Assembly: GCA_963739455.1 (NCBI GenBank)
Contig: CAVUAK010000001.1
Coordinates: forward strand, 1,824,001-1,888,000
Direction: 5' to 3'
DNA from: an uncultured Gemmatimonadales bacterium
GTDB taxonomy: Bacteria > Gemmatimonadota > Gemmatimonadetes > Gemmatimonadales > GWC2-71-9
DNA length: 64,000 nt
In this document: positions 8,072 through 56,197 of the stretch, piece by piece
How positions within the stretch are numbered: the first letter of the stretch is position 1
Layout: every line of letters begins with the position of its first letter
Notes under the pieces: generated by a model
Told to the model about the DNA's origin: nothing
Databases searched by the model: none
Seen by the model: the letters and a program-made list of their open reading frames with translations, nothing else
Made by a program: the position numbers and the translations under genes

Positions 8072-8458
8072 ATGACTGCTGCATCATCCCCCCGGTTTGA
8101 GAAGCTGGAAGCCTGGAAGGCCTCTCACCAGCTCACGCTCTGCGTGTATCAAGCTACCAAGTTGATGCCGCCGAGCGAACGCTTCGGACTGACCGCGCAG
8201 ATGCGTCGGGCTGCTATCTCGATCGCTTCCAATATTGTCGAAGGTTCAATGCGACATGGCAAGCAGGAGTATCGCCGATTCGTGGGCATGGCGGCCAGCT
8301 CCTTCAATGAACTGCGGTATCAGATTCGGTTGTGCGAGGAGCTGGGGTATTTACCGGCGGAGAGCATCGAGGAATTGAGACATGCTGTCGACCACGCCGG
8401 CCGCCTGGTGTGGGGACTCTACCGGGGTCTGGGCGGGGTGGTAGCGTCCAAGTCGTAG
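8072..8458 (+). CDS. Four-helix-bundle protein (23S rRNA intervening-sequence protein family)
   Basis: FEKLEAWKAS, P.SERFGLTAQMRRAAISIASNIVEG, ASSFNELRYQ, the signature of this family. Confidence 0.93.
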   Translation: MTAASSPRFEKLEAWKASHQLTLCVYQATKLMPPSERFGLTAQMRRAAISIASNIVEGSMRHGKQEYRRFVGMAASSFNELRYQIRLCEELGYLPAESIEELRHAVDHAGRLVWGLYRGLGGVVASKS

Positions 8459-11140: not shown

Positions 11141-12346
11141 ATGCCCGACCCGCTTTCGATCAACCTGGCGCACCTGAAGGCGTCTGAAACCGTCGCGATC
11201 AGCAATGAGACCAAGCGACGGAAGGCGGCCGGGGAGGACGTCTATGACCTGAGCGTCGGTGAGCCCGACTTCGACACGCCGGCGCCCATTCGCCAGGCCG
11301 CCATCGAGGCCATCAACAAGGGCATGACGCGGTACCCGCCCAACATCGGCCTGCCGGAGTTGCGCACGGCGATCGCGCGGACGCTGTCACTCATGTCGGG
11401 CGGCCGGGCGGTCAATCCTGATCACATCGTGGTGAGCTCGGGGTCAAAGCAGTCCCTGTTCAATACCTGCTTCACGCTCTTCGGCCCCGGCCAGCGGGTG
11501 CTCATTCCGGGCCCGGCGTGGGTGTCATATCCCCAGATTGTGCATCTGGCACGCGCGGAACCGGTCCTTGTGCCCGGGGACATTGAATGGGGCATGAAGG
11601 TGAGCGTCCGTGATCTCGATGCCGCCTACAGCAAGTCGGTGAAGGGCCTCATCCTCTGCTCGCCCTGCAACCCGACCGGCGCGGTCTACACGCTGGCCGA
11701 ACTCAAGGCGATCGCCGAGTGGGCCCACAAGCACCAGGTGTGGATCATCTCCGACGAGATCTACCGGACGATCAACTATGGCCCGGGGCCGGCAGCTTCG
11801 ATGCTCGACCTGCCCGATGAGCTGCTCGAGCGCACCGTGCTCATCTACGGTGTCTCCAAGGCTTACGCCATGACGGGCTGGCGCATTGGCTCGGCGCTGG
11901 CGCCACCGCACGTGGCGAAGGCGATGGCAGCACTGCAGTCGCACACCACCACCGGTGCCAACCATCCGGCGCAATGGGCGTCGGTTGCGGCGTTCAACGA
12001 TGAGCGAGTGGCCCAGGACGTGACGAAGATGGTGGCGGCCTTCCGGCGCCGGCGGGACCTGCTGGTGAGCCGCTTCCGCAGCGAGGTGCCCGGGGTGGAG
12101 TTCGTCGAGCCGCACGGGGCGTTCTACTTCTTCTTCCGGGTCGATGGCATCCGTGACGGGGCGACCGGTTCGAAGTTCTGCGAGGAGCTCATGCAGCGGG
12201 AGGGCGTAGCACTCGTGCCCGGGGCCGCGTTCGGCGACGACCGCTGGGTCCGCATGAGCTACGCGGTGTCCGACAAGGAGCTCGAGGCGGCGATCGACCG
12301 CATCATCCGGGTCATCCGGACCATGGGAGCGGCCCGTGCCGCCTGA
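11141..12346 (+). CDS. aspC: Aspartate aminotransferase-type class I/II PLP aminotransferase
   Basis: GEPDFDTP, SPCNPTG, SDEIY, SKAYAMTGWRIG, GAFY, VPGAAFG. Confidence 0.93.
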   Translation: MPDPLSINLAHLKASETVAISNETKRRKAAGEDVYDLSVGEPDFDTPAPIRQAAIEAINKGMTRYPPNIGLPELRTAIARTLSLMSGGRAVNPDHIVVSSGSKQSLFNTCFTLFGPGQRVLIPGPAWVSYPQIVHLARAEPVLVPGDIEWGMKVSVRDLDAAYSKSVKGLILCSPCNPTGAVYTLAELKAIAEWAHKHQVWIISDEIYRTINYGPGPAASMLDLPDELLERTVLIYGVSKAYAMTGWRIGSALAPPHVAKAMAALQSHTTTGANHPAQWASVAAFNDERVAQDVTKMVAAFRRRRDLLVSRFRSEVPGVEFVEPHGAFYFFFRVDGIRDGATGSKFCEELMQREGVALVPGAAFGDDRWVRMSYAVSDKELEAAIDRIIRVIRTMGAARAA

Positions 12347-12854
12347 GACATCATTGGGACCGCGGTTCACCGTCGAACGCCAGACTGGCGCCCTCCCCTC
12401 CATCGCGTGGCGATGGGATCCCGAGACCGACATCCTGTCGGGCACCTTCCGGAGTTCGGGAAGCTCCCGTCTCGACGGTACCATCGAGTTGACTGACGCC
12501 GAGGGCGCCATTGCGGTGCTCGATGTGGCCGACGGGGCGGTCGCTGGTCTCGATGTTGTCGTGTGGCCTGAGGTCACCTCGACCCGTGGGCTCGCGCTTC
12601 CCTCGAGCGTCGAGAGTGGTCGCGTCGTGCTCCGTGGTCCCCGGGCCGACCGCACGACGTCGGTGGAAATCGAGGCGGTGCTCACCATCCGCACCAATCC
12701 CGGCGAGAGCATCTATCACCTGAAGCTCGGCACCCTGCCGGCGGCGCGCGCCGTGCGGGTTGCCGATCAACTGCTGGTCGAGCTGGATGCGGAAGACGGT
12801 CTCGCGGGTTGCTGGCTCATGGGCGTGCCGCCGTTCCCGAGCCTGGATGACTAG
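12336..12854 (+). CDS. Hypothetical protein, apparently two tandem DUF2283-like modules
   Basis: WRWDPETDILSGTF...LDVADGAVAGLDV and IRTNPGESIYHLKL...LLVELDAEDGLAGCW. Overlaps both neighbours. Confidence 0.65.
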   Translation: MPPETSLGPRFTVERQTGALPSIAWRWDPETDILSGTFRSSGSSRLDGTIELTDAEGAIAVLDVADGAVAGLDVVVWPEVTSTRGLALPSSVESGRVVLRGPRADRTTSVEIEAVLTIRTNPGESIYHLKLGTLPAARAVRVADQLLVELDAEDGLAGCWLMGVPPFPSLDD

Positions 12855-13785
12855 CGACCTTACTGCTCTTCGCCGGTCGCTCGCTGCCGCAGGAATCACC
12901 CCCGCATCAGTCATACCGCCGGCGAGTGCAGGCCGGCGCGAGGAAGCCGAAATCCATCTCGCGAAATTGCTGGAAGGTGACCACGTCGAGGCTCGCGATG
13001 TGGGCGAACCGGCCGGCTGGCCCGATCCGGTGGCGTTCCTGGATGGGGTACAGCACTCCGAGGTTGTCGGCTACGCCGGGTCATCCCCGATCGTGGTGGC
13101 CTCGGTCGCGGCCGCAGTGAGGGAGCGCACCGGCCGCGTGCTTGCCACCAGGCTGGTAGAGCGGCGCGACCTTGTCATCGGCCGCCGGGCGGCACTCGAC
13201 GACGCAGGCTCCGCACTCGATGCCTTCGAGCGGCTCGAGCTCTCCGATTCCGATCCACCCCATCCCATTCGCGAGCTGGCACAGGCCGGTGCTGCCCTCG
13301 ACGACGCGCGGGGAGCACTCGAGGTCGCAGCGGGAGTTGCCTACCGGAATGTGAGTCAGGCCTGGCTGGTGGTGGATGGCTCGCTGGCCGAGAGCCCGGT
13401 GTGGGCGCAGGATCCGCGCATGGTGGGGGTGGCGAAGAGTCATTCTTCGCTTCCGTTCGACGGCGCTGACCTCGAGGCTTACCTCAGGCTGCCGCCGGGA
13501 CATCGCTCACCGATCTTTGCCCCGGCATCCCGTCGTCTCGCTCCCGTCCGTGCATGGGCAGTGCGGCTCTGGCCGTGGGAGGGGAAGGACCTGCTGCATG
13601 GCCTCATCCGCGTCGAGGTGGCCCCGGTCAACGGCACGCCGGAGATGGCCGACCGGATCTCACGCTGGTTGCTGGCCGAGCGTGCGCCGATCAGCGCTCC
13701 CGACCCGAGGTGGGATCGGATGCTGTACGGGATCCGTAGTGTCGAGGAGTTCCTGAAAGCGACGCGCGTCTCACCCCACCGTTAG
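12847..13785 (+). CDS. nurA: NurA-like 5'-3' nuclease
   Basis: AFLDGVQ, LVVDGSL and VGVAKS motifs of the NurA RNase H-like fold; directly upstream of HerA. Confidence 0.8.
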   Translation: MTSDLTALRRSLAAAGITPASVIPPASAGRREEAEIHLAKLLEGDHVEARDVGEPAGWPDPVAFLDGVQHSEVVGYAGSSPIVVASVAAAVRERTGRVLATRLVERRDLVIGRRAALDDAGSALDAFERLELSDSDPPHPIRELAQAGAALDDARGALEVAAGVAYRNVSQAWLVVDGSLAESPVWAQDPRMVGVAKSHSSLPFDGADLEAYLRLPPGHRSPIFAPASRRLAPVRAWAVRLWPWEGKDLLHGLIRVEVAPVNGTPEMADRISRWLLAERAPISAPDPRWDRMLYGIRSVEEFLKATRVSPHR

Positions 13786-13794
13786 GTTTGTTGA

Positions 13795-15726
13795 ATGCCA
13801 GCGCCCATTGGTCGCGTCGTTGCCACCGAGCTCAAGCCCAGCACCCCGCACCAGTTCTACTTCTGGACCGCGACGGAGTCTGAGGTCGGGATCGGTGCGA
13901 TTGTGCGCGTCGATCACCCGGGGCGAACCGTGTACGGCGTGGTTACCGATGGCATGGCCTACGCCGACCTGGCATCGCCGCTTCATGCCGTCATCGGCGC
14001 GGAAGGCGACCCCTCCGTTGTGGCGAACGAGCCCACCGCCCGCACCGAGGTGCGTCTTTTCCTGGCGGCCGTGCTGCGCCAGGTCCCCGAGGAACCGCTT
14101 CAGCCGGTGCCGCTCGGCGCCGTGCACCTCGCCACCGATGCCGACGTGGAGCTGGCGCTCCGCATGGATGCGTACACCCGCTCCGAGCGGCCCACCGGCA
14201 TTCCTGTCGGCGTCTACGCCCTGGGAGGCCATGAGTCGCCGGTGCTCCTCGATGCCGATTTCCTCCTCGGGCCCGAGGCGGCGCACCTCAACATCACCGG
14301 CGTGTCGGGCCTGGCCACGAAGACCAGCGCCGTCGAGTTCCTCCTCTCGAGCATCTTCCAGACCTTCCCGGCGCATCGCGGTTCCATTGCCGCCGTGTGC
14401 TTCAACGTGAAGGGTCCCGATCTCTGCTTCCTCGACCAGCCGGGCGAGATCTCCGAGCGGGATCACGCCCTGTACGACAAGCTGGGACTCGCCGCCGAGC
14501 CGCTGACGAAGGCCCGCTATTTCGCGCCCTTCAAGGCCGACGGCGTCAACCTCAACACCTTGCGGACGCACGAGGCGCTGCAGCACAACACCGAGCCGCT
14601 CGTGTGGGGCCTTCGCGAAGTGCTGGACTATGCGGAAGTGGTGATGAATCGCGATGACATCGACGCCAAGGCCGATGCCTTTATCGATTTCCTCGGCGAG
14701 CGTGTGGTGGGACGCGAGTTCACCGATGACCTGCTCCGTGGCAAGCCGTTCAAGGTCGAGAGCTTTGCCGACCTGGAGGAGTTCTTCCGGGCCATCTTCG
14801 ATTTCATGGAGGCGATGGGCCGGGGTGGAGAGGTGTGGCGCACGCATCACGTCGCGACCATTCGAAAAGTGCGCAACCGGCTCGGAAACATCAGCACCCG
14901 CGCGAAGGGCCTGGTCATCGATGACGGCGCCCCAAACGACCTGCCGTGGGGCAAGTTCGAGGACCGTACCGTCTACGTGGTAGATGTCGCCGGGGTTGAT
15001 CCACTGGCCCAGGACCTCGTCTTCGCCCGGTGCGTCTCCAAGCTGCGGGAGCACCTCGAGCGTCGAGATCTTGGCGTCGACCACGTCGTCGTTTTCGTGG
15101 ACGAACTGAACAAGTACGCCCCCGCCGACGGGCCGGACACCTACGTACGCAAGATGCTGCTCGACCTGGCCGAGCGCGGGCGATACCTCGGCCTCGTCCT
15201 GTTCTCGGCGCAGCAGTTCCGTTCGCAGGTGCAGCGCCGCATTGTTGGCAACGCCGGCACCTCTGTGTTCGGCCGGATGGACATGGACGAGCTGGCGACG
15301 CCTGCCTATTCCACACTCTCGCCGGCGATCAAGATCAAGCTGGCCACGCTTCCAAAGGGCGAGCTGATGCTCCGTCATCCGCACTTCACCCAGCCAATCT
15401 TCGCCCGCTTCCCGCGGCCGGCCATGCTGAGCGGCCGCGAGGGCGTCGAGCGCTTTCCGCCCGGGGCCGAGTTGCCCTTCGCGGATGCCGTGGCGCGGCA
15501 GCTCAGGCAGTTGGATCGTCGCGTGTCGACTGACGCTGTGCGCGCGCTGGTGGAGGGTCGCCCTGAGCTTGATGTCCGGCGGGCACTCGCCCTGACACGC
15601 CGCACCCGTCCGGACGATGTGCTCGCCTTCTTCACTGCGAAGCTGGGGCGCCGCATCGGCGGGGAGGTGGTCACGCCGCGGAGCACGGTCCGTCCAGTCG
15701 CGAGCGGCGTGGACCCCTATCAGTAG
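13795..15726 (+). CDS. herA: HerA-like ATPase/helicase (HAS barrel + FtsK/HerA ATPase)
   Basis: N-terminal IGRVV...F.FW barrel, variant Walker A HLNITGVSGLATKTS, Walker B VVFVDELNKY, AERGRYLGLVLFSAQQ. Confidence 0.88.
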   Translation: MPAPIGRVVATELKPSTPHQFYFWTATESEVGIGAIVRVDHPGRTVYGVVTDGMAYADLASPLHAVIGAEGDPSVVANEPTARTEVRLFLAAVLRQVPEEPLQPVPLGAVHLATDADVELALRMDAYTRSERPTGIPVGVYALGGHESPVLLDADFLLGPEAAHLNITGVSGLATKTSAVEFLLSSIFQTFPAHRGSIAAVCFNVKGPDLCFLDQPGEISERDHALYDKLGLAAEPLTKARYFAPFKADGVNLNTLRTHEALQHNTEPLVWGLREVLDYAEVVMNRDDIDAKADAFIDFLGERVVGREFTDDLLRGKPFKVESFADLEEFFRAIFDFMEAMGRGGEVWRTHHVATIRKVRNRLGNISTRAKGLVIDDGAPNDLPWGKFEDRTVYVVDVAGVDPLAQDLVFARCVSKLREHLERRDLGVDHVVVFVDELNKYAPADGPDTYVRKMLLDLAERGRYLGLVLFSAQQFRSQVQRRIVGNAGTSVFGRMDMDELATPAYSTLSPAIKIKLATLPKGELMLRHPHFTQPIFARFPRPAMLSGREGVERFPPGAELPFADAVARQLRQLDRRVSTDAVRALVEGRPELDVRRALALTRRTRPDDVLAFFTAKLGRRIGGEVVTPRSTVRPVASGVDPYQ

Positions 15727-15765
15727 CCGCTTGCCCCTCGGGGCGCATCGCTCCATTCTCTACTC

Positions 15766-16953
15766 GTGAAACTCGCCCATATCGCGGATTCCCACCTGGG
15801 AATCCGTCAGTACCATCGCCAGACCCCCACGGGCATCAACCAGCGGGAAGCCGACGTCGCCAACGCCTTCCGCGGCGCCATCGACGACGTCATCGCGCAG
15901 CGTCCCGACGTGGTCATCATCGCCGGCGATCTTTTCCATTCAGTGCGTCCTACCAATGCCGCGATCGTCTTCGCCTTTCGCCAGTTCCAGCGCCTGCGGG
16001 AGGCCCTGGGCCCCGATGTCCCGGTCATCATCGTCGCCGGCAACCACGACACGCCCCGCTCCTCCGAAACCGGCAGCATCCTCCGGCTGTTCGAGGAGCT
16101 TGGCATTGCGGTCGCGATCGATGAGGCGCGCCGCTTCGACTTTCCGGCGCTCGACCTGAGCGTGCTGGCGGTGCCGCATCCCGCGCTGCTCGCGCCTGAC
16201 CCGCCGGAGATGAGGCCCACCGGCTCAGCCAGGTATCACGTCCTCGCGATTCATGCCGAAGCGCCGGGGCTGCTGCCCGCGGACCGGTCAGGCCTCGAGT
16301 ATGGTGGCGTGATCGTCACCCCCGAGCAGATCGGATCCGGGGCCTGGAACTACGTGGCATGGGGCCATTATCACGTGCGTCGGCAGCTCGCGGAGAAAGA
16401 GTGGTATTCAGGCTCGCTCGAGTACACCAGCACGAACATCTGGGGCGAGCGCGCAGAGGAAGAGGCGAACGGCATCGACGCCAAGAGCTGGCTCATGGTG
16501 GATGTCGCGACGGGGACCGTGACGCCGCACAGCGTCAAGCACGCCCGCCGCGTAATCGACCTCCCGCCGATCTATGCCGACGGGCTCGGCGCGCCCGAGC
16601 TGGATGCGGCGATCGCCGACCGGGTTGAGTCCGTCCCTGACGGAATCGCGCAGCAGATCGTGCGGCTCGTAGTGTTCGACGTGCCTCGCACCGTGGCGCG
16701 GGAACTGAACCACGCACAGATCCGGGCCTGGAAGGCGGCCGCATTGCACTTCCATCTCGACCTGCGGCGGCCGGTGCGCAACCGGGCCACGGGTGTCGGT
16801 GCGCCGGGCCGGCGGCAGACCCTGCCCGAGGTGGTACGTGACTGGCTCAGCGATCGCGTCCTGCCGGGTGAGATCGATCGCGAGCGCTTCGTTGCGCGCG
16901 GCGTGGAGCTGGTGGAGCAGGCCGAGACCGACGGTGGGGATGTCGTCGCATGA
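15766..16953 (+). CDS. sbcD: Mre11/SbcD-type DNA repair nuclease
   Basis: Metallophosphoesterase motifs DSHLG, GDLFH, GNHD, GHYH, YSGSLE. Confidence 0.93.
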   Translation: MKLAHIADSHLGIRQYHRQTPTGINQREADVANAFRGAIDDVIAQRPDVVIIAGDLFHSVRPTNAAIVFAFRQFQRLREALGPDVPVIIVAGNHDTPRSSETGSILRLFEELGIAVAIDEARRFDFPALDLSVLAVPHPALLAPDPPEMRPTGSARYHVLAIHAEAPGLLPADRSGLEYGGVIVTPEQIGSGAWNYVAWGHYHVRRQLAEKEWYSGSLEYTSTNIWGERAEEEANGIDAKSWLMVDVATGTVTPHSVKHARRVIDLPPIYADGLGAPELDAAIADRVESVPDGIAQQIVRLVVFDVPRTVARELNHAQIRAWKAAALHFHLDLRRPVRNRATGVGAPGRRQTLPEVVRDWLSDRVLPGEIDRERFVARGVELVEQAETDGGDVVA

Positions 16954-19373
16954 TCATCCACCGCCTGCGACTGGTGAACTTCCGGCAGCATGAGAACACC
17001 GAGATCGAGTTCGGCAACGGATTGACCGGCATTGTCGGCCCCAACGGCGCGGGCAAGACGACGCTGCTCGAGGCCATTGCCTGGGCGATGTACGGCATGC
17101 CGGCGGCACGCGGCACCAGGGAGAGCATCAAGCGCCGAGGTGCCCCGCCGCGCGCCAGCGTCGAGGTCGAACTGGTGTTCTCGCTGGGAGCACATCGCTA
17201 TCGCGTCGTGCGGAAGATGGGCAGCGCGGAGCTCTATCTCGACGCCTCGGACGCACCGATTGCCACCGGCATCGGGCCGGTCACCGACCGGGTCACGCGG
17301 CTCATGGGCATGCGGCGCGACGAGTTCTTCAACACCTACTTCACGGGGCAGAAGGAACTCGCGGTCATGTCGGCGATGAAGCCGACCGAGCGGGCGCAGT
17401 TCCTCTCACGCGTCCTGGGTTACGAGCGGCTTCGAGTAGGGCAGGATCGCCTGCGCAACGAGAAGACTGCGCTGCGCGCACGGCTCGATACGCTGCGGAG
17501 CGGGCTGCCGGACCCGGTCGCGTTGCAGGAAGCGGTCGCGGCCACCACCGAGCGATGCAACGCGACCGAGAAGCTGGTGACTGCCGCTCGCGAGCAGGTA
17601 CAGAAGGCGGATCGCCGCCACGCGGAGCTCGGCCCGCAGTGGGCGGCGGCGCAGAAGCAGCGCGAGGCGGCGACGGCGCTCGATTCCGAGCTGCGCCTGG
17701 CTCAGCGCGACGTGGAGACGACGGGCCGGGAGGTGGCGCGGGTTACAGTCGAGCTGCAGGCGGCGACGGTGGCGGCCGCCCGAGTAGCCGAACTGGGAAC
17801 GCTGCTCACGCTGCTTCCTGCCCTCCGCGAGGAAGCGGCGTCGCTCACCAGGGATGCGGAGGGCAACAATCGGCGCGCGGCCAAGGGGGCCGAACGGAAG
17901 GAGATCGTGCGCCGGCGGAAGGAACTGGCGAAGCTGCTGGACAAGGCGCCGAGCGAGACACAGCTCGAGAATGCAACGGTTGCCCTGAACACGGTGCGGG
18001 AAGCACGCGACTTCACGTTGCGGTCCCTCGAGGCGCGGCGCACCCTCTGGGTCCAGGACACGCAGGAAGCCAAGACCAAGCGCGAAGGCCTGCGCGACCA
18101 GTACAAGGACCTGGCGGAGCAGCGGAAGCAGATCGTGAGCGCCGGTGTGGAGGGGGCGTGCCCGACCTGCGGCCGCCCGCTCCGCAAGGAATATGAATCA
18201 GTGCTCGGGGTACTCGACCGTCAGGCTGAGGAAGTGAAGTTCAACGGCAGCTTCTATAACCAGCGCTTGGAGCAGCTCAAGGATGCGCCGGCAGAGGTGA
18301 AGCAGCTCGAAGAGCAGCTGCAGGAGCTCGAGCGCAAGCTGCAGGCGGCGGTGCAGGCCGGTGCGAGCCTCGCGGCGGCTGTCACGGAATCCACCAAGCA
18401 GCGGACCGAGGTCGCCCAGCTGGACAAGCGACTCAGTGCAATCGAGGCAGATCTGGCCGAGTTGCCCGGCGTGGTGTACGATCAGGAAAGACATGCCCAC
18501 GTACAGGCGGAGCTCAAGCGCCTCGAGCCGCTGAACCTCGAACTCGAGCGGCATCGCGTCGGCGCGGAGAAGCTGGCGGGCCTGCAGGACGCGGCCGCAA
18601 CCGCAGAGACCTCCCGGGTTGCGGCCCAGGCGCGGGAAGCCAAGGTGCGGGTGTCGCTGGCGGAGCTTGGATTCAGCGAGGAGGGCTACCGCGACCTGGA
18701 GGAGTCGTGGGGCGGCGCGGAAAAGGCGCGCCAGGATGCGGCGCTGGCAATGATCCGGGTGCAGGGCGACATGCAGTCGGCCGTCACGGCGAGGGCGCAG
18801 GCGTTGCGGCAGGTCGAGGAGCGGTCCAGGCGGGCGAAGGAAGCTGACGACGTGGCCCTGCAGCTCCGCACCAACCAGGAGCTCGATGCCGCCCTCGGCG
18901 ACCTGCGCGACGAGCTGAATGCGGCGCTGCGTCCCGATCTCTCCGACCTGGCATCAGTGTTCCTGCGCGACCTCACCAATGGCCGCTACTCGGAACTGGA
19001 GCTCGATGAGGACTACAAGACGGCGCTGCTCGACGAGGGCGAACCCAAGGGCGTCATTTCCGGGGGCGAAGAGGATGTCGCCAACCTGGCGCTGCGCCTG
19101 GCCATCAGCCAGATGATCGCCGAGCGCGCGGGACAGCCGCTGTCGCTGCTCATCCTCGATGAGATCTTCGGGTCGCTGGATGAGGACCATCGCGCCTCGG
19201 TGGTCGAGCTGCTGCGCAACCTCGCGGACCGGTTCCCCCAGGTCATCCTCATCACGCACATCGACTCGGTGCGTGACGGCTTCGATCGCATTGTTCGCGT
19301 CACCTTCGACCAGCGCCGCGGTGCTTCCATGGTGGCCGACGAACAGCTTGAGGGACATGATGTGGCGGCCTGA
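16950..19373 (+). CDS. sbcC: Rad50/SbcC SMC-like ATPase with zinc hook
   Basis: Walker A GPNGAGKTT, coiled coils, central CPTC hook, signature SGGE, Walker B LILDEIFGSLD, H-loop ITH. Confidence 0.95.
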   Translation: MIIHRLRLVNFRQHENTEIEFGNGLTGIVGPNGAGKTTLLEAIAWAMYGMPAARGTRESIKRRGAPPRASVEVELVFSLGAHRYRVVRKMGSAELYLDASDAPIATGIGPVTDRVTRLMGMRRDEFFNTYFTGQKELAVMSAMKPTERAQFLSRVLGYERLRVGQDRLRNEKTALRARLDTLRSGLPDPVALQEAVAATTERCNATEKLVTAAREQVQKADRRHAELGPQWAAAQKQREAATALDSELRLAQRDVETTGREVARVTVELQAATVAAARVAELGTLLTLLPALREEAASLTRDAEGNNRRAAKGAERKEIVRRRKELAKLLDKAPSETQLENATVALNTVREARDFTLRSLEARRTLWVQDTQEAKTKREGLRDQYKDLAEQRKQIVSAGVEGACPTCGRPLRKEYESVLGVLDRQAEEVKFNGSFYNQRLEQLKDAPAEVKQLEEQLQELERKLQAAVQAGASLAAAVTESTKQRTEVAQLDKRLSAIEADLAELPGVVYDQERHAHVQAELKRLEPLNLELERHRVGAEKLAGLQDAAATAETSRVAAQAREAKVRVSLAELGFSEEGYRDLEESWGGAEKARQDAALAMIRVQGDMQSAVTARAQALRQVEERSRRAKEADDVALQLRTNQELDAALGDLRDELNAALRPDLSDLASVFLRDLTNGRYSELELDEDYKTALLDEGEPKGVISGGEEDVANLALRLAISQMIAERAGQPLSLLILDEIFGSLDEDHRASVVELLRNLADRFPQVILITHIDSVRDGFDRIVRVTFDQRRGASMVADEQLEGHDVAA

Positions 19374-20310
19374 CCGGAGCGTTCACGGCCCGGACCGGGG
19401 AACGGTCGACGACGTCGAGCCGCTCAACCGGCTCTTCACCGAGGCATTCACCGATCGGTATGCTCGAGACGGGCTCACGGGTGTGCGCGTGCCGCCACTC
19501 ACGCCGGCGGTGTGGCGCTATGCCGTGGAGGATGCCGCCGAGGGCGCGATGCTCTGGCGCGATTCGGATGGCCAGCTGGCGGCGTTCAACATGGTGCACC
19601 AGTCAGGCACCGAGGGATGGATGGGGCCCATTGCAGTGCGGCCGGACCGGCAGGGCGCCGGCGTTGGCCGCGCCGTCGTGCAGGCCGGCGTCGACCTCCT
19701 GCGATCGCGCGGGGCCACCACGATCGGCCTCGAGACGATGCCACGCACCACGGACAACATCGGGTTCTACGGCACGCTGGGGTTCGTGCCGCGCCACCTC
19801 ACGATCACGCTCCTGCGCGATGCCGTGCGCGCGGTCGCGCGTGACGCATCACGGCTTTCTGCCGGTGACATCGCTGCCGGGGTGGCGGAGTGCGCGGAAC
19901 TCACGTCGCTCGTGGCACCGGGCATCGATTTCACCAGGGAGCTGGTGCTGACGCACGAAATGGGGCTGGGGGACACCACGATGGTGCGCCGGAGTGGCCG
20001 ACTCGTGGCCTTCGCGCTCTGGCAGTCCACGCCACTCGCGGCCGGACGCCCGCGCGATGAACAACGCGTGCTGAAACTGGTGGCGACAGATGCCGCGGCA
20101 TTTGAGCGTCTCGTCGACGGGCTTCAGGCGGACGCCATCGCGTCACGCCTCCGCCGGGTGGCGATCCGCTGCCAGACGGCCATGAGCGGTACCTACGAGC
20201 ACCTGACGCGTCGGGGCTTTCGCGTGCACTGGACTGACTTGCGGATGACGCTTCCCGATGCCCCCGAGCCGGAGACGAACGGGATTCTCATGTCGAACTG
20301 GGAGATATAG
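19360..20310 (+). CDS. GNAT family N-acetyltransferase (two GNAT-like domains)
   Basis: IAVRPDRQGAGVGRAV acetyl-CoA motif, NIGFYGTLGF; start overlaps the rad50 stop. Confidence 0.85.
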   Translation: MWRPDRSVHGPDRGTVDDVEPLNRLFTEAFTDRYARDGLTGVRVPPLTPAVWRYAVEDAAEGAMLWRDSDGQLAAFNMVHQSGTEGWMGPIAVRPDRQGAGVGRAVVQAGVDLLRSRGATTIGLETMPRTTDNIGFYGTLGFVPRHLTITLLRDAVRAVARDASRLSAGDIAAGVAECAELTSLVAPGIDFTRELVLTHEMGLGDTTMVRRSGRLVAFALWQSTPLAAGRPRDEQRVLKLVATDAAAFERLVDGLQADAIASRLRRVAIRCQTAMSGTYEHLTRRGFRVHWTDLRMTLPDAPEPETNGILMSNWEI

Positions 20311-43725: not shown

Positions 43726-44071
43726 CTATGGTAAGGGTCTCATGCCGGGACCCGCGGCGATCCAGCGGATGCCCGCGAATCCGTCCCTGACGTCCTGCAT
43801 TGAGCCGCGCGATGATCTGTGGTGTCATGAGGCTCAGCTCGTTGGCCCACGCGGCCGTCGTTACGCGCACCCGCAGCAGGCCATCGGGTGTGATCGACTC
43901 CGCCTCCGTCACCGCCGCGATCTGCTCACCCACAAGGCGGGGCCATTCAACGATCACGGTGGCCTGCGCCACCCGCGCCCCGATACCGGTGCGACCGAGC
44001 CAGGCTGCAACCGCGTCGCCGATCGGTGCCGGCGCGCGCTTGCGGGAACCCCTCGCTTCATCGTCGCTCAT
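43726..44071 (-). CDS. dciA: DciA (DUF721) helicase-loader family protein, frameshift near 3' end
   Basis: [26 protein letters not shown]; canonical recF-dciA-gyrB order. Removing one G gives ...[19 protein letters not shown]. Confidence 0.82.
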
Positions 44072-45156
44072 GCCGACTCCCCGCCACGTGTGGCCCGGCC
44101 GCCGTTCATTTCCCACCGCGGGAGCTCGAGTTGCCGCGGCAATTCATCGCTCCGCGGCGCCGTCACGAAGAGCTGCCGTGCTCCATCGCGCGTGAGCCGC
44201 ATGGCCAGCCGCCGCTGCCGTTCCGAGTCGAGCTCCGCGAATACGTCATCCATCAGCAGCGCCGGCTCCATGCCGCGGCGCTCGCGGAGCGTGCCGAGTT
44301 CCAGCAGCTTGAGCGCGATGGCGGCGCTGCGGAGCTGGCCGGTGGAGCCGTACACCCGCAGCGGCTGGCCATCGATCGCGAGCGCGACGTCATCGCGATG
44401 GGGACCAACGGTGGTAATGCCGCGCGCCCTGTCCGTCGCGAAACTGCGAGTAAAGGCATCGTGCCATGCCCCCGGCTCGGACAACTCGGGGCGACCGGCA
44501 TACTCCAGCGTCGCGTGTCCCGATTCGTTGAGCCCCGCCAGTTCGTCGGCGAATGCCCCACCTGCGCCGGCAGCCCACGCAACACGGCGCTCCACGAGCA
44601 GCGCCCCTTCCGCCGTCAGGATCGGCTCACAGGCCCGGGCGACGTCGCCCTGCTGCTGTCGCAGCGCCGCGTTCCGGCGGGACAAGGCGCCGCGATATCG
44701 CAACAGCGCCCGCAGGTACGCCGGCTCGGCCAGTGACAGCATCCGGTCGAGAAAACGTCGCCGACCGGCGGCCGGTCCCCCAGCCAGCTCCACGTCGCCG
44801 GGAAGGAACACCACCGCGAGCCAGCGGCCGATCGCGGCGGTGAGTCGTCGCTCCTCGACGTTGTCGACGGCAATCCGCTTCTTCCGGCCCGATGCCAGGA
44901 AGGTGGCGGTCAGCGATCCCGTCGCCTCACCGTCGAACACCGCCTCGACGTGGAACCCCGTTCCGTTGAACGCGACCAGTTCCGAATCGGTCGCCCCGCG
45001 AAAGGACCGGAGCAGGACCGGGTAGTACGCCGCCTCGAGGAGATTGGTCTTTCCCTGGCCGTTCTGCCCTACAAGGGCGAACCCCCCTGACGGCACTTCC
45101 AGCTCGCCGTCCGCCAGGTTGCGGAAGCCACGGATCGCGAGGCGGGAAAGCCTCAC
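44068..45156 (-). CDS. recF: DNA replication/repair protein RecF
   Basis: [41 protein letters not shown]. Confidence 0.96.
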
Positions 45157-48510: not shown

Positions 48511-49972
48511 TCAGGGATTGCTGGACGGAATTCCCAGGGCGTGACAGGCGGTGCACATCTGCGGGTTCGCCTTGCGCAGTTTCTCGGCGGGGAAGTTTGG
48601 CCCATGCGGATTGAAGCGCCGCCCGCCGAACGACGAATGACACACCATGCAGTCCTTCTCACTGTGACAACTGACGCAGGTCTCGAGACCCTGTCGGGCG
48701 GCGGGCCCGTGCCCCGCCGCGAACGTGGGGTTTCCATCGTGGTAGATCGCCTGCCCGCCGATGAACCGGCCCCCTGAGGCGATGCCGTTCTGCGCGTGAC
48801 AGGTCTGGCAGAACTGGCCCGGGTTGTGGCAGTCGGAGCATGAAGCTTCACGACCATACGCTGCGACCGGGTGCCGAGTGATGAAATCGGCCGGGTGAAA
48901 TGTGCCTTGCGTGCCCGCGTTTGGGCGGTGGCATTGCAGGCATTGCTCCTGAACGTGGCATCCCGCGCATGTCTGCGGCGATGTGCCCGCCAGTTGCGCA
49001 TGGCCATCGGTGAAGTCGGTGCCGTGCGTGGCGGGGCGGGCGCGGGTCACGGTGGCACCTGCGCCGCGGCCTGGTCCCGCCACGGCGAGCACTCGCACCT
49101 GCTGGGGCGGCACCTGGTGGCACGCCTCGCAGCTGGTAGCGGTATGACACGAGCCGCATTGCTGGGTCACTTGCTGCTTCGACAGCTTGCGGCCGTGGGA
49201 GCTCGCGAACGCCGGCACCGAGTGCGATGCCGGAGCCTTCACGTCCGGCACGGCCATGGCGAGTGAACGCGCATCGGGCTGGAGCGCCTGGATCGCGGGC
49301 ACCTCGGGCGCGTTGACGTGACAGGTGATGCAGTAGTCCCGCGCGTGACAGGTCGTGCAGGAAGGTGACACGTTGTACTTCACGCCGTTCAGCACGATCG
49401 GCCCGGCGAACTTTCCATGTCCCGACTGGAAATCCGGCGAGGCATGTGAAGCAGGTGCCTTCCAGGTGGCGACTTGGGCCTCGGTGACGCCTGGTGGCAT
49501 CTCCCAGAACGGCACGTGGCAGGTGGCGCACTGCCCCGGCGGCGCGTCGAAGTGGTCGGTGCCCGCCTTGTGGCACGCCAGGCAGTTCCCGATCACGTCG
49601 CGCTGCACGTTCATCCACTTCGCGCCCGGCTCGCTGTGGCAGGACGCGCATGCCAGCCCACTGTCGCCTCGCGGCTTCGCGGCAACGACTCGCTGGTGGG
49701 CCTCGTGAGTAAACCGGAGGTTCGACGGAAGCGCCCCTGTGCGCGGTGCCCAGGTGACCGACTTCTGGATCTTGTCGTCATGGCAGGCCGCGCAGTCGGC
49801 CGGCGCGGGCCACAGCGGCTTCCGGGTCTCCGCCGCTCCTGCGTGACAAGTCTCACAGCGCACAAAGAGCGTGGCGTGCTGCGTGTGATCGAATGGAACA
49901 GCCTTCACCGCAGCGGCAGCCAGCAGGGCGCTCGCAGCGAGGGCGAGGAATCGCGAAGTGCGCGCTGGTCAT
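48511..49972 (-). CDS. Periplasmic 16-heme c-type cytochrome (frameshift in signal peptide)
   Basis: 16 CxxCH counted. ATG at 49972 overlaps the porin stop; removing one base restores the signal peptide ..RFLALAASALLAAAA. Confidence 0.9.
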
Positions 49973-51477
49973 CGCTGGTATCCCACCGCACTCGGCATGC
50001 GCTTCACGGCGTCGGGCAAGCCGGTCCGGTCGGCGCCACCCGCGCTGAATACGTAAGTGACGTAGGCGCTGATGCGGGCCTGGTTCCAGTCGAACGCGGC
50101 CGCGTCCGGTCGCTTCCGGTTCTCGTTCACGTAGACGATGGATGCTCCGACGAGCACCTGCTGCGTGGTGCGCAGGCTCACGTCGAGCCCCGCCCAGGTG
50201 AGGTAGCTGTCATCGAATCGGTATACCAGCGGGCGCTGGCTGTACGCGCCGTAGAGGCGCAACACCATCGCGTCGAATGGATTCCAGCCGACCGAGGCGT
50301 CGCCTCCTGCGGCCACGGCACCGAAGTTCCTCTCGTACATCCAGCCGGCATCGAAGGTCCAGCGTGGCAGCGCCGTGACCGTGGCTCCGACCGCCCACAG
50401 CGTGCCCGTTGGTGCGGCGCTGCCGAGCGCCGTCTCCGCGCCGGTGTTCTCGTACTCCTGCCACTGTATGCGCCCACGCAGCTTGAGCCAGCGGGTCGCC
50501 GAGACGATCGCCGATGCCTGCACGCCGTTCCACGGCACCGGGGAGAACGCCGGCCAGATCGACCAGAGATCGAAGCGCGGCATGTACCGCTTGTAGCCCG
50601 CCGTGGCCGAGACGCGCGGGGCGGTGAAGCGCACTTCGGCATCCGCGCTGCCGACCCAGCCCTGGGCAAGGTCGTATTCCATCCAGCCAGCCACGGCCAG
50701 CCGGGGGACCGGGCGGACCACCGCGCTGCCCGAGAGGAAATCCGACATGAGGTAGTCGGTGGAGCGGTCAACCTGGCGCTGCCACTGCGCCTGCGCCTCC
50801 ACTGGGCCGCCGACAAAGCCCACGAGCACGCCACCAATGAGGTTTCGTTCACCGGGTATGAAGTCGCCGAGTGGGGCGGTGACCGGGTCGTTCACGCCTA
50901 CCGAACTGGAGCGCGCGAGTCCCAGGCCGGCATAGCCGGTGGCTTCGAGGCCGTACTTCCGGTAGCGCAATGTGGCCCGGCCGCCATCGAAGCCGGCGAA
51001 GCCGAGACGCGTTGTGATGGTTTGCCGTCCCGCGAGGACGGCGAACCAGTCGTGCTGGTAGCTGAGGTAGCCTTCCCAGAACTGGAACGCGGGCGTGGTC
51101 GCGGCGAACGCCTCGTCGCCCGCGTTGCCGTTCATGCGGAAGTTGAGGTGCGCGCTCAGTCCGGCGGTTCCCAGGCCCCATGCGGTCACGTCGGTCGTGA
51201 AGACGAGCGGGGCGTACTGCACCCTGGGGCCGGCGGCGTAGAAGTAGCACCAGTTGGGTGCGCTGCAGGCCACCGCATAGCCCGTCGCACTGTAGAGCCC
51301 GCCGCCGTCTCCCACCACCACCTCCGACCGCGGAATGCTGTCGAGCAGCCAGCCGCGAGTGGCGACGCTCTGACCGCGCAGGTCAAACGACCCGCGGAAG
51401 CCTTGTGCCGATGCCGCCGATACGCCCAGCGCGATGCCCACTGCCACCAGCGCCACAACGCGCGCGGGGTGCTTCAC
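49969..51477 (-). CDS. Outer-membrane beta-barrel protein (porin of a porin-cytochrome complex)
   Basis: Signal peptide ending ASA|Q; alternating aromatic-rich strands (LRLYGAYSQ, VGASIVYVNE, ARISAYVTYVF); sits between two multiheme genes. Confidence 0.78.
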   Translation of the reverse strand: MKHPARVVALVAVGIALGVSAASAQGFRGSFDLRGQSVATRGWLLDSIPRSEVVVGDGGGLYSATGYAVACSAPNWCYFYAAGPRVQYAPLVFTTDVTAWGLGTAGLSAHLNFRMNGNAGDEAFAATTPAFQFWEGYLSYQHDWFAVLAGRQTITTRLGFAGFDGGRATLRYRKYGLEATGYAGLGLARSSSVGVNDPVTAPLGDFIPGERNLIGGVLVGFVGGPVEAQAQWQRQVDRSTDYLMSDFLSGSAVVRPVPRLAVAGWMEYDLAQGWVGSADAEVRFTAPRVSATAGYKRYMPRFDLWSIWPAFSPVPWNGVQASAIVSATRWLKLRGRIQWQEYENTGAETALGSAAPTGTLWAVGATVTALPRWTFDAGWMYERNFGAVAAGGDASVGWNPFDAMVLRLYGAYSQRPLVYRFDDSYLTWAGLDVSLRTTQQVLVGASIVYVNENRKRPDAAAFDWNQARISAYVTYVFSAGGADRTGLPDAVKRMPSAVGYQR

Positions 51478-53487
51478 CGGTCGCCCAGGAGCTGCGGACG
51501 AAACGCCGATGGCGTGGCCAGCAGGTGGCACACAGTGCACTGCGTCCCTGCCTGGTGATCCACCTTGGGATCGTGGCAGGCGAGACAGAAAGCGCGATTG
51601 GGCTCAAGCCGCGACACGGTGGTTGCCTGGTGGCAGGCGACGCAGTCCACGTGCGACTCGCGGGTGTGCGCCTCCCAGTTCGTCGTACCACGATGGCAGC
51701 CGGCACAGTCGCGCCCGGCGTCATGATGCTGGTCGTGGCACCCCTGGCACTGTGCTGCCGCGGGGGATGCGGCCAGGGTCACCGGTGTGGTGTGACAGGT
51801 GAGGCACGTGACGGCGCCGTGACCTTCATGGCTGAATGCCACCTCGCGGGCGCGATCGGGCGCCTTCGGGGCGCTCGTCTGCACGTGAATGGTCTCGCTG
51901 ACCTGCAGCTCCTGCATGCGCGATGCGTCATGGCAGGACGAGCAATCGGCCTTCGTGGGCGCCTGGTGATGGCAGATGAGGCACCCGCGCGGGGCCTTGA
52001 ACGTGACGGTGCTCGCCTTCGACTTCACGTCGTGGCAGGTGATGCAGTGGAGTTTCTTGTGGTTGCTGTGCGAGAAGGGCCGGGGCGGTGCTCCTGGTGG
52101 GACAGGGTCTGGCGGCGGATCATCGATTGGTGCGTCACCCTTCCCGTGCGGCAACGGGGGTGCGATGTCCAGCGGACCGGACGTGCGCTGCAAGGTCTTG
52201 AGCGTGTCGAAGGGCAGGGGCGGCTTGCGGCGCAGTGCCGCGCGCGCCTTCGAACTCTGGTGGCACCCGACGCAATCTGACGCGTCCACCCGTGCCGCAT
52301 GCGGTGTGTGGCAGGTCTCGCAGCGCGCCGCGATCTTGCGATGCGCTGCGCCATCATGGAAGGCCACTTTCTTCGTATCCGCATGACAGCCCGCATCGGT
52401 GCAGCTCTTGAGCGCGTCCTTCGGTTTCACGTTCTGGTGCGGATTGTGGCACATGCCGCAGGTGCCGCCGTGCGGGTCGCGCTCCGGATTGAAGTCCGCA
52501 AGCCGTTCCCGCATCGCATGGCACGAGAAACACTGTTTCGATCCCGGTCGCAAGGCACCCTTGGCGGAATCGAAGGTGGCGAGCTCCGGGACCACGCGCG
52601 TGAACCGGTGGCAGACCATGCAGTGGAGCCCCGTCTGCCCCGCCATCTTCCCCAGCCGGATGTTCACGTCTTCAGTAAGGTGACAACCCTGCTGGGAGCA
52701 GGTGCTGTCCACCGGCGCAAAGCGGTGAGCCGAGCGCGCGTGACAGGTGAGGCATTCCACCTTTCCGCGGAGCGCCGAGCTGTCCGACTCCAGGTGCGTG
52801 CGGTGGCCGGCGGTCTTCGAAATGGCCTGCCATGTCGCCTTTGCGGCGCCCAGCTTGTGGCATTTCTCGCAGACGTCCCTGGGCACCTTGCCATGCTCGG
52901 GGATTGTCGAGTCGCGGACACCCGACATCCACAGCGTCATCTTCACCGCTTCCTTGCGGAAGTCGAAGGCGTGGCAGGTGTGACAGTTCAGCGTGTCGTG
53001 CTTGCCCTCGAGCTTGTTGACCAGCGTGTAGTCGCCGCTGTCGGGGCGCTCCACCACCTGGCCACTCGGCACGAAGACGTGGCACCCGTTGCACATGCGC
53101 GGGTCGTTCATCATGAAGTCGTACGACTTCATGCCGGCCGCGACGACGCCGAGCACCGCCAGCAGCACCACAGCGCCCAGGGCCGCCTTCACCGCCGTGC
53201 TTCGGGTCGCGAGGTACTTCACCACCGCCTTGATGTGCCCCCGCAGCCACCAGAGCGCGGCGATCCCCAGCGATGGCGGCGAGGATGGCGCCGCCCCACA
53301 TCACCCACGGGGGCTTCTGGAAGATCCACTGGATGATCGGGGTGACGGTGTCCGGCAGCAGCGTGTGGTCGACGGTGGAGTCGAGCACCTCGGGGTGGCC
53401 GGGCACCCGGATGGTGGCAGTGTCCTGCCTGCCAACGGAAGCGGCCGCCACGTAGGCGGCCGCACCGTGAACCAGCCGAGTCAGCAC
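51474..53487 (-). CDS. Membrane-anchored 20-heme cytochrome c with NapC/NrfH-like N-terminus (frameshift in GGGG run near 53265)
   Basis: Two hydrophobic helices, then DPRMCNGCH; 18 CxxCH plus 2 CX4CH; Pro-rich linker. Restores to 670 aa. Confidence 0.88.
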
Positions 53488-53512
53488 GGGACGCCCGCGC
53501 TCCACTGGCGGC

Positions 53513-55142
53513 TTACCGGATCGCGGTCTGCCGTGCACCGGCGGGAGGGGTGTACCGGATGCCAGGCGTGGAGAGCGCATTCCGGACCGCAGCTTCCTGG
53601 GCCGGGGAAAGCGCGTTGAGCAGGCCATACCGCGCGCGTACCGCGTCGATCGACCCGGCGATCAGTCCGCGGTAGAGCACGGGGTTGTGGATGCCCTTGG
53701 AGCCATCGTTGTGCGGATAGAGTTCCTCGCCCAGCATCCGCGCGTTGAACAACGCACCCTCGGCCACCGACAGGCTGTTGTCCTTCGCATCGGCGGTGCA
53801 GCAGAAGTACGCGGAATCGGTTGCGGGCACGGTCGTGCCCGGATGCTGGGCAAGAACCGCAGGCAGCAGGCCGCCATCGGTAGTCTCGAGCACGGTATTG
53901 TGGTTCGTGTCGATCCACAGGATGTCTACCAGCACCTTGATGCTGGCCCGCGTGCTGTTGAAGAGATTGGCTGCGTTGTTGGCATTGCCATGACAGGCGG
54001 TGCAACCAGTCCAGAATCGCGCAGTTGCCGTGTATTCGCAACTTCCCGCGGTCGGGAGGCCGTTCGCGTCCTTGCACGGGTTGGGCGAGAACAGGTGACC
54101 GACCGAGGTGAACTCCGTGCCCGTGGAGAGGTCGGTGGTCGTGAAGGTGACCACGTGGCACCCGGCGCACAGGCGCGTGTTTGCCGTCACATGCGACGTC
54201 TGCACCGGGTTGTCCGGGTCATAGACGAACCCGGGAGGCGGCCAGCCGGCGGCCTCGCCGAAGTACACCGCGCCCTGGGACGCGTGGGCACCGCGCGAGT
54301 TGATCGTGAAGGACGGCGTCGCCGACGCGCTCTTGGTATGGCAACTCGAACAGAGGTTGGCTGTCCACGTCCGGATTGTCGATCGGGGCACGGAGCTGCC
54401 CGGCGTTTGTCTTGGCGTGCGGATCGTGACAGACAGCGCAGGTGAGCGGGAATTGCGTGGTCTTCCCGATGTAGTTGGTAGGCGCGTTGCCGCTCAGCTT
54501 GGCCATCGCCTGGGCGCCGCTATGGCAGGAGACGCCGCACGAGGTCGGCGTCTCAGCCGGCCCGCCGGGTTCATTCCGCAGGTTCGCATGCGCCGATTGC
54601 GACCATTGCTCCGCGAACGGGTGATGGGCCCCCGAATGGCAGGCGACACAGGTCTGTCCCGGCGGGGTTACCAGCCCGCTCGCGAGCGGGATGTTGGTCG
54701 AGTTCGGGTTGGTGACGTGGGTGAGGCCAGGACCGTGGCAGCTTTCGCACTGAACATTGTGATAGACGGAATCGGGCACGGCATTCCAGCCACCGGGAAT
54801 CCCAGCGGCGAAATAGGTGTTCCCGTTCTGCGATACGGTATGACAGCCAAAGCACGTCGGCAGTGCGACCCCCGGCGGCAGGGACGCGAGCGTTGCGTAT
54901 GCGTCGGCGTGCCTGGTGCCGGACCATTCCGTCTGGTTGTTGACGTGGCAGTTGCCGCAGGTCGTCTGGTTGGTGTGGACGTCATACAGCCCCAGGAATC
55001 CGGCCACGCTGTCGGGCGCCGGGTTGAAGCGGGGCTGGTCCACCTCGACGATCTCGGTATTGGTGCAGGCGCTCGCGGTGAACGCGCCCGCCAGGACGAC
55101 GAGCGCGAGCAGGGTCCAGTGCGGACGAAGGTTCGTGCGCAT
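53513..55142 (-). CDS. Multiheme (9-heme) c-type cytochrome lipoprotein (frameshift near 54360)
   Basis: Lipobox-like ASAC; 8 CxxCH plus 1 CX3CH (CGVSCH); C-terminal DGSKGIHNP. Restores to 542 aa. Confidence 0.88.
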
Positions 55143-55386
55143 GCGCGTCTCGGGAAGGCGAGGAATGACCGGCAGCAGTCTGCTACACATTACCGCCCGG
55201 TAGTTGTACGGACAAGAGAGCCCTGATGATCATTCCGTGAAGTTATCTTGTTCATTCCCTTGGAGTTATGGCAAGCGCCTTCGTGATGATCTCTTCACTC
55301 GTATCGACCCCATTCCGGCGCCAGTGCGGCTCCAGTATTCTCCTGTCGCTCGTTCAGATGCCACTCACTCCGAGGCAACGCCCCTC

Positions 55387-56197
55387 GTGACAACGACATG
55401 CCCTGCCTGCGGCGCCGCAGCCAGCGGGAAGTTCTGCAGCTCATGCGGCGCAGCGTTGTCACCCCGCAACTGCGGTCAATGCGGCCGGCCGGTCGCCCCA
55501 GGCGCGCAGTTCTGCCGGGATTGCGGCGCCGCAGTCGGGAGCCAGTCCCGCCAGCGTGGGTGGTGGGGATCGAGGTGGCCGGACCGCCTGGATTGCCGCA
55601 GCCGGACTCGGTGCGGCAGTGCTCGCGGTCGTCATCGCCTTTCTCGTCAAGAACGAGCGCCGCCCCGTGCCTTCGGCTGGGCCGATGGCTGCGGCGCTAT
55701 CGGCTGAAGCACAGACTTCGGCTGGACCGGAGGGAACGCCTCCAGACATCAGCAGCATGTCTCCGAAGGAGCGGTACGACCGGCTCTACAACCGGGTCAT
55801 GCGCGCTGCTGAATCGGGTGACCAGGCCACCGTGGAGCGCTTCACTCCCATGACGGTCATGGCCTTTCAGCAGCTCGACAGCATCGACGCCGATGCGCGC
55901 TTCCACATGGCGATGTTGCTCTTGCACACCGGGCAGGTTCCCGGCGCACAGGCGGAAGCCGACAGTATCCTCAAGTTCTCGCCCGGCCACCTCTTCGGGT
56001 ACATGATCCGGGGAGCCGTCGCCCGCTGGAACAAGGACGCGGGGGCCCTCAAGAAGGCTCAGGACGAGTTCCTGGTGCGCTACGACACGGAGATGAAGGC
56101 CAAGCGGCCCGAGTATGGGGAGCATGAGCGGGCGGTGAGTGACTTCCGGGCCTCAGCGCTGGGGCAGGCTCCTCCGCCCCCGGCCGCCGGTTCCTGA
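55387..56197 (+). CDS. Double zinc-ribbon + TM + TPR-like protein (frameshift near 55550)
   Basis: CPAC, CSSC, CGQC, CRDC in ORF 55204-55707; TM and helical domain in ORF 55556-56197. Removing one base gives 269 aa. Confidence 0.7.

Follow-up and report, generated by a model that had tools for sequence, protein, structure and literature searches.

Does a cluster of nurA, herA, mre11 and rad50 genes process the ends of DNA double-strand breaks in a bacterium, and does it do the work done elsewhere by AddAB or RecBCD? The question is raised by a stretch of 64,000 nucleotides (the window: positions 1,824,001 to 1,888,000 of contig CAVUAK010000001.1, assembly GCA_963739455.1) from an uncultured bacterium, placed in the Gemmatimonadales by the names of homologues and the titles of related loci. 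The genome amounts to 3.6 Mb in four contigs and is 83.7% complete. Between window positions 12847 and 19373, the open reading frame list and its translations gave four contiguous, co-oriented genes on the plus strand in the order nurA-herA-mre11-rad50. A sequence-only reading of the window had described them as an archaeal-style resection operon, unusual for a bacterium, and every motif that it quoted was located in the translations. We consider it likely that the cluster is a chromosomal, vertically inherited double-strand-break end-processing module of the Gemmatimonadales. This interpretation builds on the protein identities, the intact catalytic motifs, the conserved linkage and the finding of no AddAB- or RecBCD-type genes in the assembly.

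The four genes are tightly packed, with 9 nt between nurA and herA, 39 nt between herA and mre11, and a 4-nt overlap (ATGA) of mre11 and rad50. The GC content is high throughout the window (0.63-0.69), and the cluster matches the rest of it with no compositional anomaly. As each gene has hundreds of homologues and the catalytic positions are kept across 80 related loci, the four genes are more than chance open reading frames. The 80 loci, one per representative species, were collected by HerA alignment and are the best 80 of 584 confirmed loci, all from Gemmatimonadota and several of them labelled Gemmatimonas sp. A promoter scan of the locus returned no promoter-like site, and a terminator scan returned six terminator-like sites, all within genes, against 3.6 ± 1.9 in shuffled sequences, which is chance level.

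Identity of the four proteins

The first gene (12847..13785, +) encodes 312 aa from an ATG that sits within a longer open frame beginning with TTG at 12760. Its product, a predicted divergent NurA nuclease, matched no Pfam, NCBIfam or PADLOC model, staying below the gathering threshold of the Pfam NurA model (PF09376), and phmmer matched it to no PDB chain even at an E-value of 10. Searched against the whole genome, the Pfam NurA model gave no match, and it was positive in 7 of 14 control genomes. Relatives of the protein were plentiful, with 1077 proteins at E ≤ 0.001 among 8000 scored candidates and 499 representatives in a 50%-identity library. All 120 relatives listed are named “hypothetical protein” and none carries a precomputed Pfam domain.

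A family profile (A1) was built from 74 full-length representatives, nine of which matched Pfam NurA (best E-value 1.5e-5). Searched against the PDB, the profile found Thermotoga TM1739 (1zup_A, E 3.7e-8) and Deinococcus radiodurans NurA (7f6d_H, E 6.3e-8). An AlphaFold2 model computed from the A1 alignment (pLDDT 93.8) had 7f6d_G, 1zup_A, 1zup_B and 2ygk_A as its first four Foldseek matches (E 8.6e-12 to 3.5e-6). Sulfolobus NurA was matched through the fold only, at the weaker E-value of 3.5e-6, and the next matches were the TdpAB nuclease chain (8wfd_G, E 1e-4) and then endonuclease V. Because the family profile matches NurA chains in the PDB and the predicted fold agrees, the first gene product is, on profile and model, a NurA nuclease with an RNase H-like NurA fold nearest to the solved NurA structures, as the sequence-only reading had proposed.

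The translation carries FLDG at residue 64, VDGSL at 176 and GVAKS at 194. Motif I reads VAFLDG (D66) and motif II LVVDG (D177), and the accessible part of a review (PMC13748450) names the acidic residues of the “DG” in motifs I and II as defining NurA. Across the related loci D177 was kept in 73 of 73 sequences, E257 and E278 in 74 of 74, E159 in 70 of 73 and D66 in 64 of 72; in the family alignment, E159 and E278 show no variation. The same portion of the review gives the C-terminal motif III as LxxAH, with a histidine. The corresponding stretch here, aligned by eye only, reads W-L-L-A-E and appears to have the invariant glutamate E278 in the place of that histidine.

The second gene (13795..15726, +; 643 aa) encodes a predicted HerA-type hexameric translocase ATPase. 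Its Walker A motif, GVSGLATKT, starts at residue 169, and its Walker B motif is VDELNKY (DELNKY at 436). A phmmer search of the PDB aligned query stretches 5-276 and 340-553 with D. radiodurans HerA (7f6d_B, E 1.6e-42). The Pfam HAS-barrel model was matched weakly (E 0.0039; 17.7 bits against a cut-off of 25.2 bits), and the remaining Pfam models and all NCBIfam models gave no match. K176, T177, D436 and E437 are kept in 80 of 80 loci. By these alignments the second gene product is a HerA translocase related to the Deinococcus protein.

The third gene, mre11/sbcD (15766..16953, +; 395 aa from a GTG start), encodes a predicted calcineurin-like phosphoesterase nuclease. The translation contains IADSHLG, GDLFH, GNHD and GHYH, the Pfam Metallophos model was matched above its cut-off (E 3.3e-11), and the metal ligands D8, H10, D55, H94 and H203 are kept in 75 of 75 loci. 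The fourth gene, rad50/sbcC (16950..19373, +; 807 aa), encodes an SMC-like ABC ATPase whose split head is joined by a coiled coil with a central CxxC zinc hook, CPTC at residues 404-407. GPNGAGKTT (Walker A) lies at residue 30, the ABC signature SGGE at 704 and LILDE (Walker B) at 734. The Pfam models AAA_23, SMC_N and SbcC_Walker_B all matched above their cut-offs, and the hook cysteines are kept in 65 of 65 loci. No other Mre11 and Rad50 pair was found in the genome.

The affinities of this pair differ from those of NurA and HerA. The best NCBIfam match of Mre11 was Mre11_Sulfo (1e-22; 80.9 bits against a cut-off of 500), ahead of sbcd TIGR00619 (6.8e-17; 62.1 bits against 77.65), and in the PDB archaeal Mre11 (1.5e-15) came before the Thermotoga protein (1e-6). 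Rad50 was likewise best matched by the Rad50 model PRK03918 (2.4e-51; 174.7 bits against a cut-off of 700), ahead of sbcc TIGR00618 (5.9e-31; 107.3 bits against 478.5), and by Methanocaldococcus jannaschii Rad50 (4.2e-32) before that of T. maritima (2.5e-22). Since the archaeal models score best, yet every NCBIfam score stays under its cut-off, the pair is, as judged from these scores, a distinct lineage and an orthodox member of neither the archaeal nor the bacterial set. A Protein Atlas search with Mre11 returned only Gemmatimonadota clusters. The archaeal affinity claimed in the sequence-only reading thus holds as a leaning of Mre11 and Rad50, far under the cut-offs, and fails for NurA and HerA, whose nearest relatives are the bacterial proteins of Deinococcus and Thermotoga.

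Linkage within Gemmatimonadota and in other phyla

To follow the linkage we used 121 evenly drawn Gemmatimonadota genomes, the same set being searched with each protein. NurA was matched in 68 of them, HerA in 82 and Mre11 in 97 (all at E ≤ 1e-5), and Rad50 in 86 (E ≤ 1e-10). The linkage count was restricted to close matches for HerA, Mre11 and Rad50, leaving out the rows of a divergent family (f7) and other weak rows, which gave tables of 68 genomes for NurA, 76 for HerA, 85 for Mre11 and 84 for Rad50. All four genes were present in 66 of the 121 genomes. In 60 of these 66 they lie on one contig and one strand in the order nurA, herA, mre11, rad50; in the remaining six at least one gene is on another contig, and several of the matches abut contig ends. 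Three further gene patterns were met in one genome each.

The 80 HerA-selected loci gave a similar picture. Four co-oriented genes were present in 64 of them, most of the others being cut by contig ends. Mre11 and Rad50 were found at all 55 loci whose sequence reaches 5.5 kb or more downstream of herA, and NurA at 71 of the 73 with upstream sequence, adjoining herA in 66. The four-gene linkage is therefore no peculiarity of this assembly. The median gaps in relatives are 59 bp between nurA and herA and 26 bp between mre11 and rad50. The flanks recur across species as well, with an aspartate-aminotransferase-like gene (11141-12346) and a conserved hypothetical gene, up172 (12336..12854, +; 172 aa), upstream, and a tandem-GNAT acetyltransferase gene (19357..20310, +; 317 aa) downstream as the fifth gene of the string within Gemmatimonadota. 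HerA identity falls with taxonomic distance, from 65-80% in the family and 60-66% in the order to 31-38% in family f7. The constant flanks, the unremarkable GC content and the identity that tracks taxonomy argue for vertical inheritance of the cluster within the order and not for a recent acquisition. A divergent herA-sbcD-sbcC string occurs in family f7, which belongs to the same class; a NurA-like gene lies at either end of it, following sbcC in one genome and preceding herA in the other (L021:8573-9532 (+) and L022:8872-9651 (-)).

Loci that lack nurA, or nurA together with herA, still run aminotransferase, up172, (herA), mre11, rad50, GNAT. The nurA-herA pair thus behaves as a module that sits in a stable chromosomal locus. 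The nine sampled genomes in which herA, mre11 and rad50 are present but NurA is not matched, for example L011 (G038), L014 (G095), L010 (G021) and L012 (G053), also keep the GNAT gene and leave no room for nurA. In such genomes HerA may work with another nuclease. An interaction of RecJ with HerA in Deinococcus is the subject of PMC4663267.

A tblastn search of a plasmid collection with HerA matched six records (AP018315.1, AP018313.1, NZ_CP091916.1, NZ_CP134205.1, NZ_LT559118.1 and NZ_CP128402.1), namely three cyanobacterial plasmids, a Streptomyces plasmid, an 11.85 Mb Nonomuraea replicon filed as a plasmid and a plasmid of Candidatus Chlorohelix (Chloroflexota). In all six, a NurA-like gene, HerA, SbcD and SMC/SbcC stand in a row, and hhalign related the NurA-like products to the A1 profile with probabilities of 97-99% (E 1e-10 to 4e-19). 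These clusters differ from that of the window in their HerA, with an identity of only 26-31%, in a longer SbcC (about 1000-1120 aa against 807 aa) and, in the two actinobacterial records, in the position of NurA at the far end. The occurrence of the same linkage in Cyanobacteriota, Actinomycetota and Chloroflexota means that it is not special to Gemmatimonadota.

Among the closest known systems is the NurA-HerA complex of D. radiodurans (7f6d, 7wrw, 7wrx; PMC9960219). The Deinococcus HerA shares with the window protein an unusual Walker A motif, G-x-S-G-x-A-T-K-T, and nurA and herA are adjacent in both, whereas the two NurA proteins are only ~16% identical in a structural alignment. In work on Deinococcus the two genes are regarded as a pair and were knocked out jointly as an operon; those of the window are joined to mre11, rad50 and the GNAT gene. 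According to the review PMC13748450, Deinococcus and Thermus are the only bacteria whose NurA-HerA has been characterised by biochemistry and structure. In Oceanithermus profundus, as described in the available text of PMC5448004, sbcD and sbcC lie downstream of nurA-hepA, and its authors liken this architecture to the archaeal double-strand-break system. That published case resembles the window in that sbcD and sbcC come after a nurA-herA pair in a bacterium; it differs in the phylum, Deinococcota, and in having no GNAT gene in the arrangement described. Together with the records from three other phyla, this printed case shows that the sequence-only reading overstated the four-gene set as something unusual in a bacterium.

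Likeness to the archaeal operon lies in the same four kinds of protein, co-oriented, in the CxxC hook and in the preference of Mre11 and Rad50 for archaeal models. The differences are that the host is a high-GC bacterium of mesophilic type, that HerA and NurA fall in the bacterial branch, that rad50 is coupled to an additional tandem GNAT gene, and that unrelated genes often split the cluster in relatives. In Sulfolobus the gene order is herA, mre11, rad50, nurA. The window has nurA first. For thermophilic archaea generally, a herA-mre11-rad50-nurA operon is credited to Constantinesco et al. 2004 in the accessible parts of PMC13748450 and PMC5448004. Our literature search yielded no paper on the cluster in Gemmatimonadota and no systematic survey of bacteria; two papers outside its coverage, Iyer et al. 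2004 and Constantinesco et al. 2004, may include bacterial clusters of this kind.

A probable role in end resection and its alternatives

Enzyme activities, complex formation, co-transcription and a role in repair are suggested for this cluster by its archaeal and Deinococcus homologues. By that analogy, an Mre11 dimer with zinc-hook Rad50 would recognise and clean DNA ends, and a HerA hexamer would feed duplex DNA to a NurA dimer for long-range, processive resection. The resulting 3' tail would be passed to RecFOR and RecA, with the machine working alongside RecJ, in parallel. In the Gemmatimonadales lineage it probably does what AddAB or RecBCD does elsewhere, if the homologues are a guide.

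The other recombination genes of the assembly were searched with this in mind. The PDDEXK_1 nuclease domain, found in AddAB, RecB and AdnAB, gave no match in this 83.7%-complete genome, and no match to RecC was found in it either, which supports the sequence-only reading. RecJ is present above cut-off, and RecR and RecA are present. The sole RecO-like match (G000:C1:2319861-2320434) is split over two adjacent frames and lies below cut-off; a frameshift, an error of assembly or divergence of recO could each account for this. The recF gene was found in the window as the sequence-only reading had stated (44068-45156, -; 264 bits against a cut-off of 172). As it adjoins gyrB on the opposite strand, 25 kb from the cluster, no coupling can be read from its being in the window.

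Among the 121 genomes, PDDEXK_1 was found in 65. In the nearest genus (g4) none of the seven genomes, which are 95-99% complete, had it; the counts were 13 of 53 in the same family (f1), 13 of 28 in a sister family (f2) and 39 of 39 in all other families. As a proxy for AddAB we took a PDDEXK_1 match within an open frame of at least 900 aa, the rows being read by one of us. Such a large protein is absent from 52 of the 66 four-gene genomes, and it is present in 34 of the 39 genomes of families f6-f12 and in 5 of the 9 genomes that lack NurA only. The four-gene cluster and an AddAB-like nuclease are thus complementary, though not strictly, and since related genomes are not independent we regard this pattern as a lead and not as a test.

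Several observations weigh against a resection module. The genome is incomplete, which bears on each gene not found in it. Large PDDEXK_1 proteins do occur in 14 of the 66 four-gene genomes, and some sampled genomes have neither the cluster nor such a protein, so that replacement of AddAB is a tendency and not a rule. No NurA match was obtained for nine sampled genomes that do have herA, mre11 and rad50, and in eight others mre11 and rad50 are the only members of the set. The motif I aspartate of NurA, D66, has given way to N, A or G in 8 of 72 relatives, and lineages with this change may, to judge from the residue, have a catalytically altered NurA. In 47 of 73 genomes herA and mre11 are more than 300 bp apart (the median gap being 883 bp), and the genes inserted there mean that a single operon is not general among the relatives. 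The review PMC13748450, in its accessible part, has bacterial NurA-HerA acting mainly against foreign double-stranded DNA. Two of the plasmid clusters outside the phylum, those of Candidatus Chlorohelix (L105) and Streptomyces (L106), adjoin genes for ImmA/IrrE-family metallopeptidases, and the Chlorohelix cluster also adjoins TIR and HEPN genes, a setting that may point to stress or defence in the case of plasmid-borne copies.

These observations could be read in other ways, each of which the evidence makes less likely. The cluster might consist of two independent modules that are neighbours with no joint function, nurA-herA on one side and, on the other, mre11-rad50-GNAT as the ordinary SbcCD locus of the phylum. 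The unrelated genes, some of them on the opposite strand, that lie between herA and mre11 in those 47 genomes would fit this, as would the genomes that lack nurA-herA and keep the aminotransferase, up172, mre11, rad50 and GNAT genes in place, and the position of GNAT 3' of rad50 whether or not nurA is present. We nevertheless find it improbable, as the neighbourhood persists in 60 of 66 genomes from many genera, the spacers in the window are at most 39 nt, and the linkage recurs in all six unrelated records from three other phyla in spite of the low HerA identity. Linkage across such distant phyla is hard to explain without selection for it.

A primary role in degrading phage or plasmid DNA, and not in repair, would agree with what the review in its available part says of foreign DNA, with the TIR, HEPN and ImmA/IrrE neighbours on plasmids and with the resemblance of the NurA model to the TdpAB chain. 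PADLOC gave weak matches to mad8, mad3 and LmuB at the locus. Apart from the weak one to mad8, these matches are of the generic SMC-head or ATPase-head kind, and no defence system model was recovered. Defence islands are usually patchy and mobile. The locus is neither, being single-copy at a fixed chromosomal site between housekeeping genes across the order and showing no anomaly of composition, and we give a mainly defensive function little chance. Still less probable is a recent transfer of the whole operon from thermophilic archaea. The best matches of Mre11 and Rad50 to archaeal NCBIfam models and PDB chains would favour it, but HerA and NurA match by sequence only bacterial solved proteins (Deinococcus 7f6d and Thermotoga 1zup), the GC content is that of the genome, the archaeal models score far under their cut-offs, and conservation tracks the taxonomy of the phylum.

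The resection module therefore remains our preferred reading, with four genes that are stably linked across a whole order of a common soil phylum and that recur in three other phyla. Mesophilic bacteria would here provide a case, open to testing, in which one end-resection system takes the place of another. The observation is confirmed and the cluster is well conserved, and since similar clusters occur in other bacteria it is solid rather than surprising.

The acetyltransferase and other neighbouring genes

The ATG of the GNAT gene, at 19357, lies 17 nt inside the end of rad50, and by this overlap the gene is predicted to be translationally coupled to rad50. Pfam Acetyltransf_1 covers residues 53-143, the N-terminal GNAT domain. 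An AlphaFold2 model (pLDDT 94.9) has two GNAT-like lobes, and its best Foldseek matches are tandem GNAT proteins (3tt2, 3ddd and 7q3a), with MAB_4324 and mycothiol synthase among them; in a sequence-profile comparison the solved proteins closest to it are RimI-type acetyltransferases. A GNAT homologue is found within 200 bp of the rad50 end at 58 of the 59 loci with at least 1 kb downstream. It is also 3' of rad50 at loci without nurA and at 6 of the 7 without nurA-herA, and it is absent from all six four-gene clusters of the other phyla.

This tightly coupled acetyltransferase is a possible partner of Rad50 and an element worth following. A bolder proposal would be that NurA-HerA-Mre11-Rad50 has displaced AddAB as the main route of double-strand-break resection in the Gemmatimonadales and that the GNAT protein is its dedicated regulatory subunit, for example by acetylating Rad50, Mre11 or an end-binding protein. 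We put this forward tentatively and hold it to be doubtful. If true, it would be a control of a type undescribed for any prokaryotic Mre11-Rad50 system.

On the other side of the cluster, the Gemmatimonadota-specific gene up172 shares 11 nt with the end of the aminotransferase gene and 8 nt with the start of nurA. Its product matched no Pfam, NCBIfam or PADLOC model, and a Protein Atlas search returned only Gemmatimonadota clusters of hypothetical proteins. Homologues with 29-91% identity lie upstream at 39 of 54 loci, adjoining nurA in only 8, and at loci without nurA or nurA-herA the gene keeps its place next to herA or mre11. Its membership in the resection machine is doubtful.

The inserts found between herA and mre11 in relatives are of two types (examples are L018:3866-4687 (-) and L008:5151-6044 (-)), neither of which is present in the window. 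One is a gene of ~280 aa that is poorly conserved and matches no Pfam model, and whose products have N-termini like those of lipoproteins or proteins with a signal peptide. The other is an opposite-strand ClC chloride-channel gene, sometimes accompanied by further genes. The ~280-aa protein was considered as a fifth subunit and rejected on account of its exported or lipoprotein-like N-termini, its poor conservation and its absence from the window.

The remainder of the window holds other genes of note. A small gene of the “23S rRNA intervening sequence protein” family (8072-8458, +) lies between the genes for dephospho-CoA kinase and thymidine kinase. A cytochrome region (48511-59857) comprises a cluster of multihaem c-type cytochrome genes (48511-55190, -) and genes for cytochrome c maturation, CcmF and CcmH-like (56517-59348). 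It is followed by a gene for a GH94-family glycosyl hydrolase/phosphorylase of more than 1377 aa (59865-63998, -), which runs past the end of the window.

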